Source of the DNA: Acidimicrobiia bacterium
GTDB lineage: Bacteria > Actinomycetota > Acidimicrobiia > IMCC26256 > DASPTH01
Direction of reading: 5' to 3'
NCBI GenBank assembly: GCA_036502765.1
Contig: DASXXX010000053.1
Span: 172-64,171 of the forward strand
Length of the DNA: 64,000 nucleotides
Shown: positions 31,763 to 51,747 of the stretch, one piece after another
Layout of the letters: each line of letters starts with the position of its first letter
Numbering within the stretch: position 1 is the stretch's first letter
Notes under the pieces: model-generated
Told to the model about the DNA's origin: nothing
Seen by the model: only the letters and a program-made list of their open reading frames with translations
Databases searched by the model: none
Made by a program: the position numbers and the translations under genes

Positions 31763-31809
31763 TGGTGGCGGGGGAAGGATTTGAACCTTCGACCTTCGGG
31801 TTATGAGCC
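31763..31809 (-). repeat. att direct repeat, left copy (displaced 3' 47 nt of tRNA-Met including CCA)
   Basis: tggtggcgggggaaggatttgaaccttcgaccttcgggttatgagcc is identical to 51701..51747. Here the tRNA D-arm and 5' half are missing, so this is a fragment and not a gene. Confidence 0.9.
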
Positions 31810-31912
31810 ATGCTGGGTGGCGTCCACCAGAACTACGTGCGTGTTATCCAGTCCTCTGACCTGCGGTTTTGGTGAGCAACGGGTCCGCCAAGACCCACCG
31901 GATCCAGCGGGT

Positions 31913-31941
31913 TGCAACCATTTGGGTTGCAAAATGGTTGC
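31913..31941. repeat. subterminal 29-bp box TGCAACCATTTGGGTTGCAAAATGGTTGC (left copy)
   Basis: Identical to 51611..51639. Contains an 11-bp perfect inverted repeat (TGCAACCATTT / AAATGGTTGCA) and three GGTTGCA direct units. Lies about 100 bp inside the left att repeat. Confidence 0.8.
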
Positions 31942-31980
31942 AGAGGTGTCTGCCCAAGAAGCCTGAACCCGGGCGAGCCC

Positions 31981-32009
31981 TGTTCAGGGTTATGATCTAA
32001 CCCTGAACA
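31981..32009. promoter_or_regulatory. 12-bp perfect inverted repeat TGTTCAGGGTTA-TGATC-TAACCCTGAACA upstream of fic
   Basis: The palindrome ends 1 nt before the GGAGGAG RBS of the Fic gene. A third CCTGAAC half-site sits about 20 nt upstream. Candidate operator or 5'-UTR hairpin. Confidence 0.4.
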
Positions 32010-32019
32010 AGGAGGAGCC

Positions 32020-33306
32020 GTGGCAAGGGTTGCACGAAGGACGTGGCGATCGACCATCGAGTCGGGTCTCCCGCGGCGAGATCGCCGCTCCTGCGAGTAC
32101 GAGGCGTACATCCCGGACGCCCTCGCCAGCCGACTGGTCACGATCGACGCCGACGTCGCGGCTGACCTCGCGGAGGCAGAGGCTGCGATCGTGGAGCTCA
32201 ATGCCCGCCACGGCGTCCTCGCCGATACCGAGGCACTGGCGCGGCTCCTACTGCGAGCGGAGGCCGTCGCGTCGTCGAAGATCGAAGGTCTCGAGGTTGG
32301 TCCTCGGCGATTGCTCCGCGCAGAAGCCGCGAGCCAACTTGGCGATGACCCTCGAGACGTCACCGCGACGGAAGTGCTCGGCAACGTCGAGTCGATGGCT
32401 TGGGCGACGAGCGAGGCCGCGGCCGGTCGGCCGATCACACGCGACTTCATCCTCGAGACGCACCGACGTCTGTTGGCACGCACTGACCACCAAGGCATCG
32501 CCGGTCGGATCCGGGACGAACAGAACTGGATCGGCGGCAGCAGCTACAACCCATGCAGTGCGGCGTTCGTCCCACCGCCACCAGAGTTCGTGGGCGACCT
32601 TGTCGACGATCTCGTGACCTTCCTCAACGATGACGTCCTGTCTCCTCTGACGCAGGCCGCGATCGCCCATGCGCAGTTCGAGACGATCCACCCGTTCGCT
32701 GACGGCAACGGCCGCGTCGGTCGCGCGCTCGTCCACGTTGTGCTCCGACGGAGAGGACTCGCGCCCCGAGTGGTGCCGCCCATCTCCTTGGTCCTGGCTA
32801 CCCGCTCGAAGGACTACATCCACGGCCTCACCGGCGTGCGTTACCGAGGAACACCGGGATCAAAGACCGCGCATCAGGGGCTCAACCAGTGGCTCGCGAT
32901 CTTCGCCGGCGCTTGCAGACGAGCGGTCGACGACGTCGCGGTCTTCGAGGAACGCATCAAAGCGCTCAGCGAGGCGTGGCACCAAAGACTCGGGCGCGTT
33001 CGTGCCAACTCCGCAACCGAGCGACTTCTCGTCGCGCTCCCAGGCGCACCGATCATCACTGTCACGACTGCAGCCGTGCTGATCGACCGCAGCTACCAGC
33101 AGACCAACCAGGCGATGCAGCGTCTCGTCGACTCCGGCGTTCTCCGCCAGATCACGGTCGGGCAACGCAACCGCGCCTTCGAGGCAATCGAGGTGATCGA
33201 CGCCTTCACCGATCTCGAGCGCCAACTCGCGAGTCCCGCCGGAGACACGCGACGAGTGTCGCCCAGACGACCAGTCCCGAGACGACAAGGCGGGTCGACG
33301 CCATGA
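32020..33306 (+). CDS. Fic-family protein (AMPylase/adenylyltransferase family) with C-terminal winged-helix region
   Basis: 428 aa with the canonical Fic motif HPFADGNGRVGR. GTG start 5 nt after GGAGGAG. Confidence 0.9.
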   Translation: MARVARRTWRSTIESGLPRRDRRSCEYEAYIPDALASRLVTIDADVAADLAEAEAAIVELNARHGVLADTEALARLLLRAEAVASSKIEGLEVGPRRLLRAEAASQLGDDPRDVTATEVLGNVESMAWATSEAAAGRPITRDFILETHRRLLARTDHQGIAGRIRDEQNWIGGSSYNPCSAAFVPPPPEFVGDLVDDLVTFLNDDVLSPLTQAAIAHAQFETIHPFADGNGRVGRALVHVVLRRRGLAPRVVPPISLVLATRSKDYIHGLTGVRYRGTPGSKTAHQGLNQWLAIFAGACRRAVDDVAVFEERIKALSEAWHQRLGRVRANSATERLLVALPGAPIITVTTAAVLIDRSYQQTNQAMQRLVDSGVLRQITVGQRNRAFEAIEVIDAFTDLERQLASPAGDTRRVSPRRPVPRRQGGSTP

Positions 33307-33683
33307 GCATCGAAAATCCTCTGAGTGTCACATCCGTGCAAGAGAATGCAGCCATGCAGCGCGACGGCGGCATGATCCGCTTCTGGACCGAAAACAGCGT
33401 CTACGAGGTCGATCAGTCTCACTCGCTCGTACGACGACTCGCCGGCATACGCGCGGCGAGCGCCCACCAAGGTGAGGATGGCCGCTGGCAGGAATACGCG
33501 GAAATCTCAGAGATCGAAATCGGGCGCCCGGTGCTCCTCACCTGGGGCGCCTCAGAGGACGGAACGGTGTTACGACGGACCGTCACGTCCGTTGTCGTCG
33601 GCGAGACCGATGGAGAGTCCGGTGATCCACCCAACTGGGTCGTTGAACTTGTCGAGTCGAGCCGCCAGCGTGATGGGAGATAG
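33303..33683 (+). CDS. hypothetical protein, translationally coupled to fic
   Basis: 126 aa (MSIENPLSVTSVQENAAMQRDGGMIRFWTENSVYEVD...). The ATG overlaps the fic stop (ATGA). No family recognised. Confidence 0.55.
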   Translation: MSIENPLSVTSVQENAAMQRDGGMIRFWTENSVYEVDQSHSLVRRLAGIRAASAHQGEDGRWQEYAEISEIEIGRPVLLTWGASEDGTVLRRTVTSVVVGETDGESGDPPNWVVELVESSRQRDGR

Positions 33684-33717
33684 GACTCTGGTGACGAGAG
33701 GCGGAAGTTCTCAAGGC

Positions 33718-50398: not shown

Positions 50399-50424
50399 TG
50401 CCCTGACCGAGTAGCCGCGCTCAC

Positions 50425-50886
50425 CTACCGTCGAGGCGGTTCGCGCGGCCATCGACGCTCTACAGAAGCGCGGTACACAACGTCGACGAACGGGCCGCGC
50501 CTCCGAGCGCGTTGCACAAGGCGGTTGATGTTGCGCGCGAAGTACTCGGCCATCTGCGGCCCGGTCAGGTGCTGATTCGCGATGGCGAAGACCCGAAGTT
50601 GGCTGTTGACCAACGTCGCTTGGTTCTCGGGGTCCCGGTAGATGCGCTCGTCCTTCGTCAAGGCAACCCAGCCCGCGGCATCGGCGTCGGCGATCCACCG
50701 AGTGTCGGCGACTCGCTGGTCCTCGCCTCCCGGATAGACGTCCACCATCGTGTGCACGGTCAGTCCGAGCTGTCGCAGAGCCTCGGGCACGACGTGGCGT
50801 CCGAGGCTGCGATCGACGAAGAACTCAGGCTGCTGCTCGACTCGGCGCGGCAAGGGCAGCGTGTACGTCGTCGAGCGGGACGCCAT
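50425..50886 (-). CDS. PIN-like toxin (DUF5615 / Mut7-C, VapC45-like), tentative
   Basis: EFFVDRSLGRHVVPEALRQLGLTVHTM...WVALTKDERI resembles DUF5615/Mut7-C PIN-like domains that pair with DUF433 antitoxins. Start uncertain (50886 or 50904). Overlaps the upstream gene by about 60 nt. Confidence 0.6.
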   Translation of the reverse strand: MASRSTTYTLPLPRRVEQQPEFFVDRSLGRHVVPEALRQLGLTVHTMVDVYPGGEDQRVADTRWIADADAAGWVALTKDERIYRDPENQATLVNSQLRVFAIANQHLTGPQMAEYFARNINRLVQRARRRGPFVDVVYRASVERRWPREPPRR

Positions 50887-51619
50887 AATCCTCGGCCACC
50901 TCAAGCTCGTCCTCGCCCGCTTCGATGCGGCCGATCACATCGGCAAGCCTGGCCGCGCCATGGATGAAGATCGGCTGACCAAACGCGCGCTCCGGATCAG
51001 CGACGAGGATCGACTCTTCGGTGATTGGAAGAGCGAGTCGAATCGCCCAGCCGCCGTCGTACTCGATCCGCTTGAGGTACTGGTCGATCACATCGTGGAA
51101 CACGCGCTGGCCCGACCGAACGACAGTCAGAAGGCCAAGCTGTTTGTCTCGCTGTGACTTGGCGTAGTCGAAGAGCAGCTCCGCACCATCGGTGTACAGG
51201 TGACGGGACGCCAGCGCGTGCTCCAGACCCATCTCCTGGTCAAGTCGCTCGAGTGCCGGCCTAATCCGTTGCAGCGGGAGGCCGGTCTCGCGGAACGCGG
51301 CGAGGACCATGCCCTCCGCCAAGCCGACGAAGGGTATCGTCAGCCGTCCGCCCGGCACGCTCGTAAGCAGCGCCTCGCCTGCAACCGGTTTGCGCCCAGC
51401 CGGCCGACGAACATAGCCCCGCACCCACGTGTCGAACGTCGACCTCGGCACTCCGAGGTACGAGGCGGCCTCGGTCACCGTGTACAGCGGCCGGGTAAAA
51501 CGCGGGTCGGTGGTGTTCAGCGGAGCAGCCCTTCTCAAAGTCGAGACGGCCAAACCGTACCGCCGAGGTATGACGCGGACGCGGAGGAACGGCACCGATC
51601 GCGCGTGGGCTGCAACCAT
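50825..51619 (-). CDS. HTH + DUF433 antitoxin-like protein (VapB45-like), tentative
   Basis: RPLYTVTEAASYLGVPRSTFDTWVRGY (MerR-like HTH), with C-terminal GQPIFIHGAARLADVIGRIEAGEDELEVAEDYGVPLDDVHAAL (DUF433-like). Start uncertain: ATG at 51619, or TTG at 51538. Confidence 0.6.
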   Translation of the reverse strand: MVAAHARSVPFLRVRVIPRRYGLAVSTLRRAAPLNTTDPRFTRPLYTVTEAASYLGVPRSTFDTWVRGYVRRPAGRKPVAGEALLTSVPGGRLTIPFVGLAEGMVLAAFRETGLPLQRIRPALERLDQEMGLEHALASRHLYTDGAELLFDYAKSQRDKQLGLLTVVRSGQRVFHDVIDQYLKRIEYDGGWAIRLALPITEESILVADPERAFGQPIFIHGAARLADVIGRIEAGEDELEVAEDYGVPLDDVHAALAAPSRAAA

Positions 51620-51639
51620 TTGGGTTGCAAAATGGTTGC
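51611..51639. repeat. subterminal 29-bp box TGCAACCATTTGGGTTGCAAAATGGTTGC (right copy)
   Basis: Identical to 31913..31941. Lies about 60 bp inside the right att repeat. Confidence 0.8.
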
Positions 51640-51654
51640 GAGGCCCGGATGCAG

Positions 51655-51685
51655 AGAGGCCCTGAGCTCGTCGCTCAGGGCCTCT
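51655..51685. terminator. 13-bp-stem hairpin AGAGGCCCTGAGC-TCGTC-GCTCAGGGCCTCT downstream of tRNA-Met
   Basis: Perfect inverted repeat 16 nt beyond the tRNA 3' end, on element-derived DNA. No U-tract, so the terminator role is inferred. Confidence 0.4.
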
Positions 51686-51700
51686 GACCTGCATCTTCGA

Positions 51701-51747
51701 TGGTGGCGGGGGAAGGATTTGAACCTTCGACCTTCGGGTTATGAGCC
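51701..51747 (-). repeat. att direct repeat, right copy (within the intact tRNA)
   Basis: 47/47 identity with 31763..31809. Identity stops at the anticodon-loop side (next base c versus a). Confidence 0.9.

Follow-up and report, generated by a model that had tools for sequence, protein, structure and literature searches.

Integrative and mobilizable elements (IMEs) are the described systems that most closely resemble the locus considered here. As Guedon et al. define them (2017, PMC5704250), they comprise an integration module with attachment (att) repeats and a corresponding empty site, possess their own relaxase and/or origin of transfer (oriT), carry no complete conjugation apparatus, and are excised and moved by a helper conjugative element; the tRNA-integrated streptococcal IMEs and SGI1 are representatives. 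Among Actinomycetota, the integrative and conjugative elements of actinomycetes (AICEs) also enter tRNA 3′ ends by means of a tyrosine integrase accompanied by an HTH_17-type excisionase (Xis). The position of attP directly downstream of int is common to all AICEs (PMC2440964), the integrase of pSAM2 is co-transcribed with a DNA-processing initiator in a rep, xis, int operon (PMC2440964), and AICEs were reported to be absent from Acidimicrobidae in a 2011 survey (PMC3218068). In this work we have analyzed a segment of about 20 kb inserted at a tRNA-Met gene of an Acidimicrobiia bacterium, located in a stretch of 64,000 nucleotides (the window) of contig DASXXX010000053.1 [GenBank: GCA_036502765.1]. 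By its predicted genes it has the content of an IME, organized around an operon of HTH_17, relaxase and integrase genes, and its integrase lies far from both ends.

We hold with good confidence that the segment between 31761 and 51747 is one integrative mobilizable element. The only tRNA gene of the window, tRNA-Met(CAT), was found by ARAGORN on the minus strand at the right end of the segment, and a repeat finder returned an exact direct repeat of 49 nt, one copy at each end (Table 1). The repeat corresponds to positions 31-77 of the tRNA-Met plus 2 nt past the CCA end; the preliminary description of this DNA had correctly called it exact and had counted the 47 nt that belong to the tRNA. When up to three mismatches were allowed, the window still held two copies only, and matches were obtained in none of 100 shuffled sequences, so that the 47-mer is not a dispersed repeat. 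The right copy is a part of the intact tRNA gene and the left one an orphan fragment, both as first described; the left copy breaks off in the anticodon stem/loop, beyond which the sequence is unrelated. The unit length of the element is 19,938 bp, i.e. 19,889 bp of unique DNA and one 49-bp core. Established identity marks of initiator tRNA-fMet are a C1/C72 left unpaired and an anticodon stem closed by three G-C pairs in a row; both are present in the cloverleaf of the target, which we read as an initiator-type tRNA-Met.

On its outer side the orphan copy adjoins a hairpin with a perfect stem (-33.5 kcal/mol, z = -6.6), which is probably a bidirectional terminator. A scan for promoter and terminator consensus sequences at the left junction gave no match; the hairpins are without T-tails, a common condition in high-GC Actinomycetota. 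Base composition also sets the segment apart: in 1-kb windows the flanks have 68.3% and 69.8% G+C and the island 64.2% (p = 5e-8 by the Mann-Whitney test), which bears out a drop first noticed in hand counts of 32/60 inside and 47/60 outside, both exact. Within the island the core, with 67.4% G+C, is nearer to the host than the two arms (63.8% and 62.9%).

The predicted unoccupied site has been found in a relative. Contig L010 [ENA: ERZ27255951] carries the TetR gene, the same hairpin and an intact tRNA-Met with nothing in between. It is 90% identical to the window at the nucleotide level over 30719-31809 (the YceI-TetR flank), its TetR homolog is 94% identical to the flank gene of the window, and its tRNA-Met region matches window positions 51695-51796 at 96%; the hairpin, which shows compensatory changes relative to that of the window, directly abuts the intact tRNA. 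The 20 kb are therefore an insertion, and the arrangement is the one that had been proposed as a check of the element, synteny on the right side aside. Three contigs with exact-protein matches to TetR and Int (L001-L003) were set aside as they are 100% identical to the window, come from the same organism or sample and are not independent evidence; an identical 7.8-kb core contig is present in a second sequencing run (SRR11833234). TetR homologs of about 67% identity (L011-L017) were rejected as empty-site evidence as well, being too distant, with differing neighborhoods, some of which have tRNA-Gly at this place. Two of these distant Acidimicrobiia loci carry tRNA-Gly, not tRNA-Met, within 18 nt after the YceI-TetR pair (L016 6311-6383 and L017 4483-4555); a tRNA gene at the YceI-TetR locus may be an old feature in which the identity of the tRNA has been exchanged.

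For comparison, 86 loci with relatives of the integrase were collected, six from genomes and 80 from metagenomes. Both ends of the element hold repeats resembling the arm-type sites of a lambda-type attP. The 33-nt repeat GGGTTGCAACCATTTGGGTTGCAAAATGGTTGC of the left end, in which GGTTGCA occurs three times, has a 97% identical counterpart at the right end and is confined to these two places; in the window the heptamer itself is over-represented, with clusters at both ends of the element. The P arm is 91% identical to the matching arm of L004, whose integrase is 87% identical to that of the window, and is conserved in L007 (integrase 67% identical); in both, GGGTTGCAAAAYGGTTGCA stands at the same distance from the att core and GGTTGCA-N4-GGTTGCA is kept next to att. 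The alignment of the P′ arm with the left arm of L101 shows 72% identity, and a tandem repeat of another kind stands at the corresponding place in L067, a more remote tRNA-Met relative. Given the arm-binding domain of the integrase, the repeats are best read as putative arm-type sites, and the lambda-like attP to which they belong would measure roughly 280 bp. In attP of the lambda type the core is flanked by arm-type sites to which the N-terminal domain of the integrase and Xis bind; the locus has in common with it an integrase with an arm-DNA-binding domain and, at about 60-150 nt from the core on both sides, direct repeats of a heptamer that are conserved in relatives. The shared 33-nt repeat, the conserved motif and the arm-binding domain indicate that both ends belong to one recombination system. 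The P arm also contains a hairpin (-34.4 kcal/mol, z = -5.6) that now lies behind the tRNA 3′ end, and this element-borne structure replaces the host terminator there.

The center of the element is occupied by three genes in the order HTH_17, relaxase and int. The stop codon of the first overlaps the start of the second and int begins 32 nt after the relaxase stop, and they are therefore read as one operon. The HTH_17 product scores 39.3 bits against NCBIfam TIGR01764 (excisionase family; cut-off 28.8). The relaxase exceeds the thresholds of the MobF equivalog NF041492 (248.5 bits, cut-off 100) and of TIGR02686 (167.8 bits, cut-off 145.5) and aligns to the TrwC structure 1OMH with E = 3e-35, with the Asp, the H-x10-H-x-H motif and both N-terminal YY pairs conserved; the motifs are FRHRTSRAGDPQLHTH, FDLCFSAPKS, and YY at 15-16 and 27-28. 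With its His triad, Asp, Tyr pairs and scores above the curated thresholds it belongs to the MOBF (TrwC/TraI) relaxases. Like TrwC of R388 and TraI of F and pKM101, it has an N-terminal HUH domain with paired catalytic tyrosines followed by a helicase of superfamily 1B (SF1B), but it is chromosomal, integrase-linked, shorter (821 aa) and without an adjacent coupling protein. The closest plasmid relaxases, about 34% identical, are the MobF proteins of small (19-35 kb) Corynebacterium and Mycobacterium plasmids. The integrase (Arm-DNA-bind_4 35.5 bits, cut-off 22.3) retains R211, K248, H323, R326, H349 and Y359, all invariant in alignment A2, and the R-K-H-R-H-Y set together with the arm domain identifies it as a lambda-type tyrosine recombinase.

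Divergently from this operon, orf78 encodes a small protein with matches to a DNA-binding protein family (PHROG 597, 3e-7) and to a family of the excisionase and transcriptional regulator kind (PHROG 66, 5e-5); its homologs are found immediately upstream of int in L024, L036, L054 and L058. Between orf78 and the operon lies an array of iterons, whose motif in this element family is CGGGAGTGA, with a central hairpin (-17.1 kcal/mol, z = -3.0). In L004/L099 (L004 6919-7046) and in L101 (3568-3814) this position holds 7-12 copies of the same iteron. From its sequence and position this region is the most plausible candidate for oriT and/or the operator of the core operon. Arrays of a different motif occupy the same relative position upstream of int in L008 (2067-2187) and L009 (8316-8441).

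The gene calls tile the island with a largest gap of about 350 bp, in the iteron region, and were scanned with Pfam, NCBIfam, PADLOC and PHROGs. These profile scans detected the integrase, both Xis-type HTH genes and the MobF relaxase listed in the preliminary description, and none of the island gene calls matched a coupling protein, VirB4, FtsK/SpoIIIE or a phage structural gene; the view of a mobilizable rather than self-transmissible element is thus supported by gene content. The only PHROGs matches of the island were to integrase, excisionase, helicase and two families of unknown function. Three other classes were considered and rejected. An integrative and conjugative element based on a type IV secretion system (T4SS) would be expected to encode a VirB4-like ATPase and a VirD4-like coupling protein, neither of which is in the element, and a prophage or phage satellite is excluded by the lack of capsid, terminase, portal and other virion or packaging genes. 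The likeness to AICEs extends to the Actinomycetota host, the tRNA 3′-end target, the tyrosine integrase with an HTH_17-type Xis and, in the case of pSAM2, the integrase gene joined to that of a DNA-processing initiator; however, there is no FtsK/SpoIIIE-type Tra, no RepSA, RepAM or Prim-Pol was found in the island ORFs by profile scans, and the stop codon of int is 7,772 bp from the tRNA 3′ end, so that attP is not directly downstream of int.

Judged from its sequence, the element thus has the gene content of an IME as defined by Guedon et al. (PMC5704250): an integrase, the 49-nt att repeats at the 3′ end of a conserved gene and an empty site in L010; a MobF relaxase of its own, with a candidate oriT; and no mating-pair formation or coupling genes in the scanned gene calls, among which the products of cassette genes A and B belong to no family. 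Toxin-antitoxin and restriction-modification (R-M) genes as likely stabilizers and tandem accretion in relatives are further features shared with known IMEs. It differs from them in its occurrence in Acidimicrobiia, in the full MobF relaxase-helicase and in being known from sequence alone. A full-text literature search returned no paper on relaxase-bearing mobile elements, IMEs included, in Acidimicrobiia, and for this reason the description of the family is probably new; the biology of the element is conventional.

The location of the integrase is less usual. From the tRNA 3′ end to the stop codon of int there are 7,772 bp, and 10,973 bp separate the start of int from the left repeat, in agreement with the first estimates of about 7.8 and 11 kb. 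Proximity to att is the norm of the wider integrase family, as had been expected for tRNA-targeting integrases: 37 loci have a tRNA gene at most 500 nt away from int (median 119 nt, range 27-470), downstream in 29 and upstream in eight of them. A more distant tRNA was observed in five loci of integrase relatives only, and in three of the five it is tRNA-Met.

Four members of the element family, that of the window included, have been compared. In L004/L098 the order of the window is kept from Mod to Int, with identities of 77% for Mod, 92% for Res, 85% for orf78, 56% for HTH_17, 69% for TrwC and 87% for Int, and int is followed by a gene for a 762-aa UvrD-type helicase, the P arm and tRNA-Met, the gap between int and tRNA being 2.4 kb; the left end of this element was not reached within 16 kb of its tRNA. 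A contig from JGI (P0123; like the relaxase contig P0126 it is known here from gene tables only) shows the order Mod, Res, orf78, TrwC (71%), Int, four unrelated ORFs, PIN_10 and HTH_66. L101 starts with a truncated tRNA-Met copy and a P′ arm at 320-500, 72% identical to that of the window, and continues with a 3.6-kb left arm without R-M genes and the core (TrwC 70%, Int 85%). Other cargo follows over more than 5 kb, with DUF6036/HTH_3, an AEP-TOTE helicase and a GIY-YIG protein, and the contig breaks off in a fragment of HTH_66. Conservation is uneven along the stretch shared by the window (33718-39326) and L004 (993-6601) and the genes that follow, from Res and Int at the upper end through Mod and TrwC to HTH_17; such unevenness implies that modules inside the "core" have been exchanged or are under differing selection.

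Homology of the window to L004, L101 and L007 stops exactly at the stop codon of int, and similarity to L004 resumes 83 nt before the att core, in the P arm; the region in between is therefore a variable cargo slot. The central integrase is a family trait produced by this slot, which separates int from the terminal toxin-antitoxin/att arm, and a second variable region is situated at the left end. The layout of the family thus reads, in its left half, attL/P′ arm, left cargo, orf78 on the opposite strand, iterons and the HTH_17-MobF-int operon, and in its right half cargo slot, PIN_10/HTH_66 pair, P arm and attR. Members depart from it in single points: the PIN_10/HTH_66 pair is present in three of the four, L004 having the UvrD helicase instead, and the R-M block accompanies the core in three of the four, together with orf78, which is absent from L101. 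The left arm does hold the Fic and R-M genes assigned to it in the preliminary description, but the R-M block, being present in three members, is not a freely variable arm. A distant Acidimicrobiia island (L102/L103, 1-14400) encodes HTH_17, a TrwC protein of 1059 aa that is 47% identical and, adjacent on the opposite strand, an integrase with the same arm domain as that of the window; its cargo consists of a NACHT protein and a PHP/AAA_23 protein, and no T4SS was seen in it. This island suggests that relaxase-integrase defense islands are common in Acidimicrobiia.

By our reading, the element entered the chromosome when its tyrosine integrase recombined attP with the initiator-type tRNA-Met gene in the 3′ part of the latter, the crossover region extending from the anticodon loop to 2 nt past the CCA end. 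Integration rebuilt an intact tRNA at attR and left the 49-nt orphan copy at attL beside the host hairpin. The insertion with its boundaries, the empty site, the intact catalytic motifs, the lack of transfer genes and the layout of the family are observed; excision competence, the location of oriT, the helper, nicking, transfer and the functions of the cargo are what we infer for the later steps of a proposed life cycle. Derepression of the core operon would supply Xis and Int, which may excise the element as a circle via the arm repeats at both ends; by analogy with rep, xis, int of pSAM2 the HTH-relaxase-int operon suggests coupled expression of excision and DNA processing. The relaxase would then nick oriT, for which the region of the iterons and hairpin ahead of the operon is the most likely site, and may also drive rolling-circle replication. 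The relaxase-DNA complex would leave the cell with the help of a co-resident conjugative element, by way of the coupling protein and T4SS of the latter. Once integrated, the element may be stabilized by its toxin-antitoxin pair and R-M system, and SoFic, the type III R-M system and the SMC-like cassette could provide the host with defense against phages or plasmids.

Several observations weigh against this reading. Contig L010 is only 1,258 nt long and ends 108 nt past the tRNA, so that about 20 nt are recognizably similar to the right flank and synteny to the right of the empty site stays undemonstrated. Binding of the arm sites is a prediction in the window, and the arm repeat of L101 is GGTAGAAG, not GGTTGCA, despite an integrase 85% identical and an arm domain 87% identical to those of the window; the integrase is therefore no more than a candidate for the protein that binds the arm repeats, and co-variation of arm domain and arm repeat is not evident from this comparison. 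The iterons could equally be read as operator sites. A search of IMG/VR for the attP junction gave 0 matches, T4SS or coupling genes were found in none of seven related Acidimicrobiia/Actinomycetota relaxase neighborhoods, the L102/L103 island being one of them, and no helper conjugative element is known for this host.

It has to be considered whether the island integrated as described and has since become a fossil, with int, xis and relaxase genes as mere relics. The empty IMG/VR search and the missing helper would fit such a history, the near-host G+C of the core could reflect long residence, and the integrase of the relative L007 is apparently frameshifted (near 10672); we nevertheless think it improbable, since identity is 100% between the 49-nt repeats and 97% between the arm repeats, none of the three core genes is shortened, their catalytic motifs are intact and their spacing is that of an operon, and a 90%-identical relative is devoid of the element. 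Moreover, L004 shares none of the flank genes of the window, and its different host flanks imply recent movement of the family.

An equally unlikely alternative is that the TrwC-like relaxase-helicase acts mainly as a rolling-circle initiator, like RepSA of pSAM2, and that the element spreads by a route independent of T4SS. The operon order HTH-relaxase-int does parallel rep, xis, int of pSAM2 (PMC2440964), an iteron array lies upstream, and none of the seven related relaxase neighborhoods contains T4SS or coupling genes. The protein nevertheless passes the curated MobF equivalog and has both Tyr pairs typical of conjugative TrwC/TraI; its nearest plasmid homologs are annotated as MobF and, of 1,296 matching plasmids, 788 are typed as conjugative and 261 as mobilizable. 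As relaxases of integrated elements commonly do both jobs, this would be a refinement of the mobilizable element more than an alternative to it.

The remaining proposal derives from the suggestion in the preliminary description that the island may be composite. According to it, elements became fused in tandem at tRNA-Met with loss of the internal att site, what remains of a second element is the right arm (cassette, Dyp and toxin-antitoxin genes), and the integrase looks central for no other reason. Accretion of IMEs and cis-mobilizable elements (CIMEs) has been documented (PMC5704250) and can be seen among the relatives: L007 (11760-12120) has a truncated tRNA-Met copy between the P arm of one element and the P′ arm of another, and L024 (7100-11180) has, downstream of one integrase, a 50-nt truncated copy at 7165 and an intact tRNA at 11083, with the same hairpin before each; the arms of the island also differ from the core in G+C. 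The fusion is nevertheless very unlikely, since no internal att or arm remnant was detected when both att regions were compared with the interior (blastn-short, word size 7; chance matches of at most 14 nt), the 33-nt arm repeat occurs at the two ends only, the terminal PIN_10/HTH_66 genes and P arm recur in same-core relatives with different cargo in between, and the point where homology breaks is exactly the int stop codon, with no att-like sequence there. What stands of the composite is its mosaic structure: the element consists of a conserved core and two variable cargo arms, yet it is a single att-bounded unit.

Table 1 Features of the element and its insertion site (coordinates of the window)
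Feature	Coordinates	Strand	Remarks
Host hairpin, between TetR gene and original tRNA 3′ end	31724..31752		just outside the element
attL core	31761..31809		orphan copy, tRNA-Met positions 31-77 + 2 nt; unlike tRNA after 31809
P′ arm of att site	31810..32019		CTCTGACCTGC 31855-31865; 33-nt repeat GGGTTGCAACCATTTGGGTTGCAAAATGGTTGC 31909-31941; palindrome upstream of fic
Fic/SoFic-type protein, defense candidate	32020..33306	+	Pfam Fic, Fic_N; PADLOC SoFic 3e-76 full length
orf126, function not assigned	33303..33683	+	no family match; 54% identical homolog in L101 left arm
Type III R-M methyltransferase (Mod)	33718..36333	-	Pfam N6_N4_Mtase; PADLOC MTase_III 912 bits; 77% identical in L004
Type III R-M restriction/helicase subunit (Res)	36333..39326	-	Pfam ResIII; PADLOC REase_III weak; 92% identical in L004
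orf78, small excisionase/regulator-type DNA-binding protein	39323..39559	-	PHROG matches; divergent from core operon
Iteron array, about 10 CGGGAG(T/C)GA	39645..39830		upstream of core operon; central hairpin 39742-39767, then A-rich stretch; candidate oriT and/or operator
HTH_17 excisionase-family protein	39911..40285	+	first core-operon gene; Pfam HTH_17 7e-10
MobF/TrwC relaxase fused to SF1B helicase, 821 aa	40285..42750	+	Pfam TrwC 1e-78, AAA_30 2.5e-49
Tyrosine integrase with N-terminal arm-DNA-binding domain, 381 aa	42783..43928	+	Pfam Arm-DNA-bind_4, Phage_int_SAM_3, Phage_integrase
Variable cargo slot	43929..50398	+	other genes in relatives; lowest G+C of the island, 62.9%
DUF3892	44064-44351	+	Pfam
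orf112	44511-44849	+	in cargo slot
Cassette A, 322 aa	44849-45817	+	no Pfam, NCBIfam, PADLOC or PHROG family
Cassette B, about 412-482 aa	45814 or 46024 to 47262	+	no Pfam, NCBIfam, PADLOC or PHROG family
Cassette C, SMC/Rad50-like, 578 aa	47271-49007	+	Zn-hook match
Dyp-type peroxidase	49127-50398	+	Pfam
Toxin-antitoxin-like pair PIN_10 (50425-50853) and HTH_66/DUF433 (50825-51619)	50425..51619	-	Pfam; adjoins attR
P arm of att site	51607..51698		33-nt arm repeat 51607-51639; hairpin 51657-51686; CTCTGACCTGC
attR core	51699..51747		second 49-nt repeat copy, within intact tRNA
tRNA-Met(CAT), intact	51701..51777	-	ARAGORN; initiator hallmarks

The cargo, as far as it can be read from protein families, appears to be mostly defense: SoFic, the type III R-M system, the SMC-like cassette and the PIN toxin-antitoxin pair. 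The last of these is found at the same terminal position in the P0123 contig and next to int in L034. The cassette in the slot consists of three tightly overlapping genes (44849-49007). Its third product matches PADLOC mad3 (4.8e-17) and LmuB (9.6e-12), both weakly, and in the comparison with Lamassu A and B matched no LmuA or LmuC model. One homolog was detectable for B, and 424 cluster representatives for A. The order A-B-C recurs, with identities of 42%, 29% and 36%, beside an IS110 transposase in a metagenome-assembled genome of Streptosporangiaceae (L104, 3398-7538). The AlphaFold model of A (predicted local distance difference test score, pLDDT, 90.9) has sigma-32 as its best match (E = 7e-3), and its C-terminal domain matches sigma region 4 with a template modeling (TM) score of 0.74 normalized to the target, so that the predicted fold of A resembles a sigma factor. 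The cassette is a candidate for an uncharacterized defense or DNA-sensing module. A Dyp peroxidase is placed between this cassette and the toxin-antitoxin pair, an unusual passenger for an island rich in defense genes, with no obvious link to its neighbors.

As a textbook-type tRNA-targeting mobilizable island, the element changes no concept. For Acidimicrobiia, an abundant uncultured class of soil and water, it adds a mobile element whose boundaries are clear and whose empty site is confirmed, and the internal integrase, due to a recombination-prone cargo slot, is useful to know for island-finding software that expects int next to att. Tentatively, and with more doubt than belief, we consider a wider possibility: widespread, so far undescribed relaxase-integrase islands of Acidimicrobiia may shuttle defense systems by a non-obvious transfer route, there being no T4SS near the related relaxases, and the slot cassette of sigma-like A, orphan B and SMC/Rad50-like C, shared with a distant Streptosporangiaceae genome, may be an unrecognized anti-phage or anti-plasmid module. 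The cargo slot after int is in any case a place to mine for new defense systems, of which the sigma-like/SMC-like cassette would be an example.

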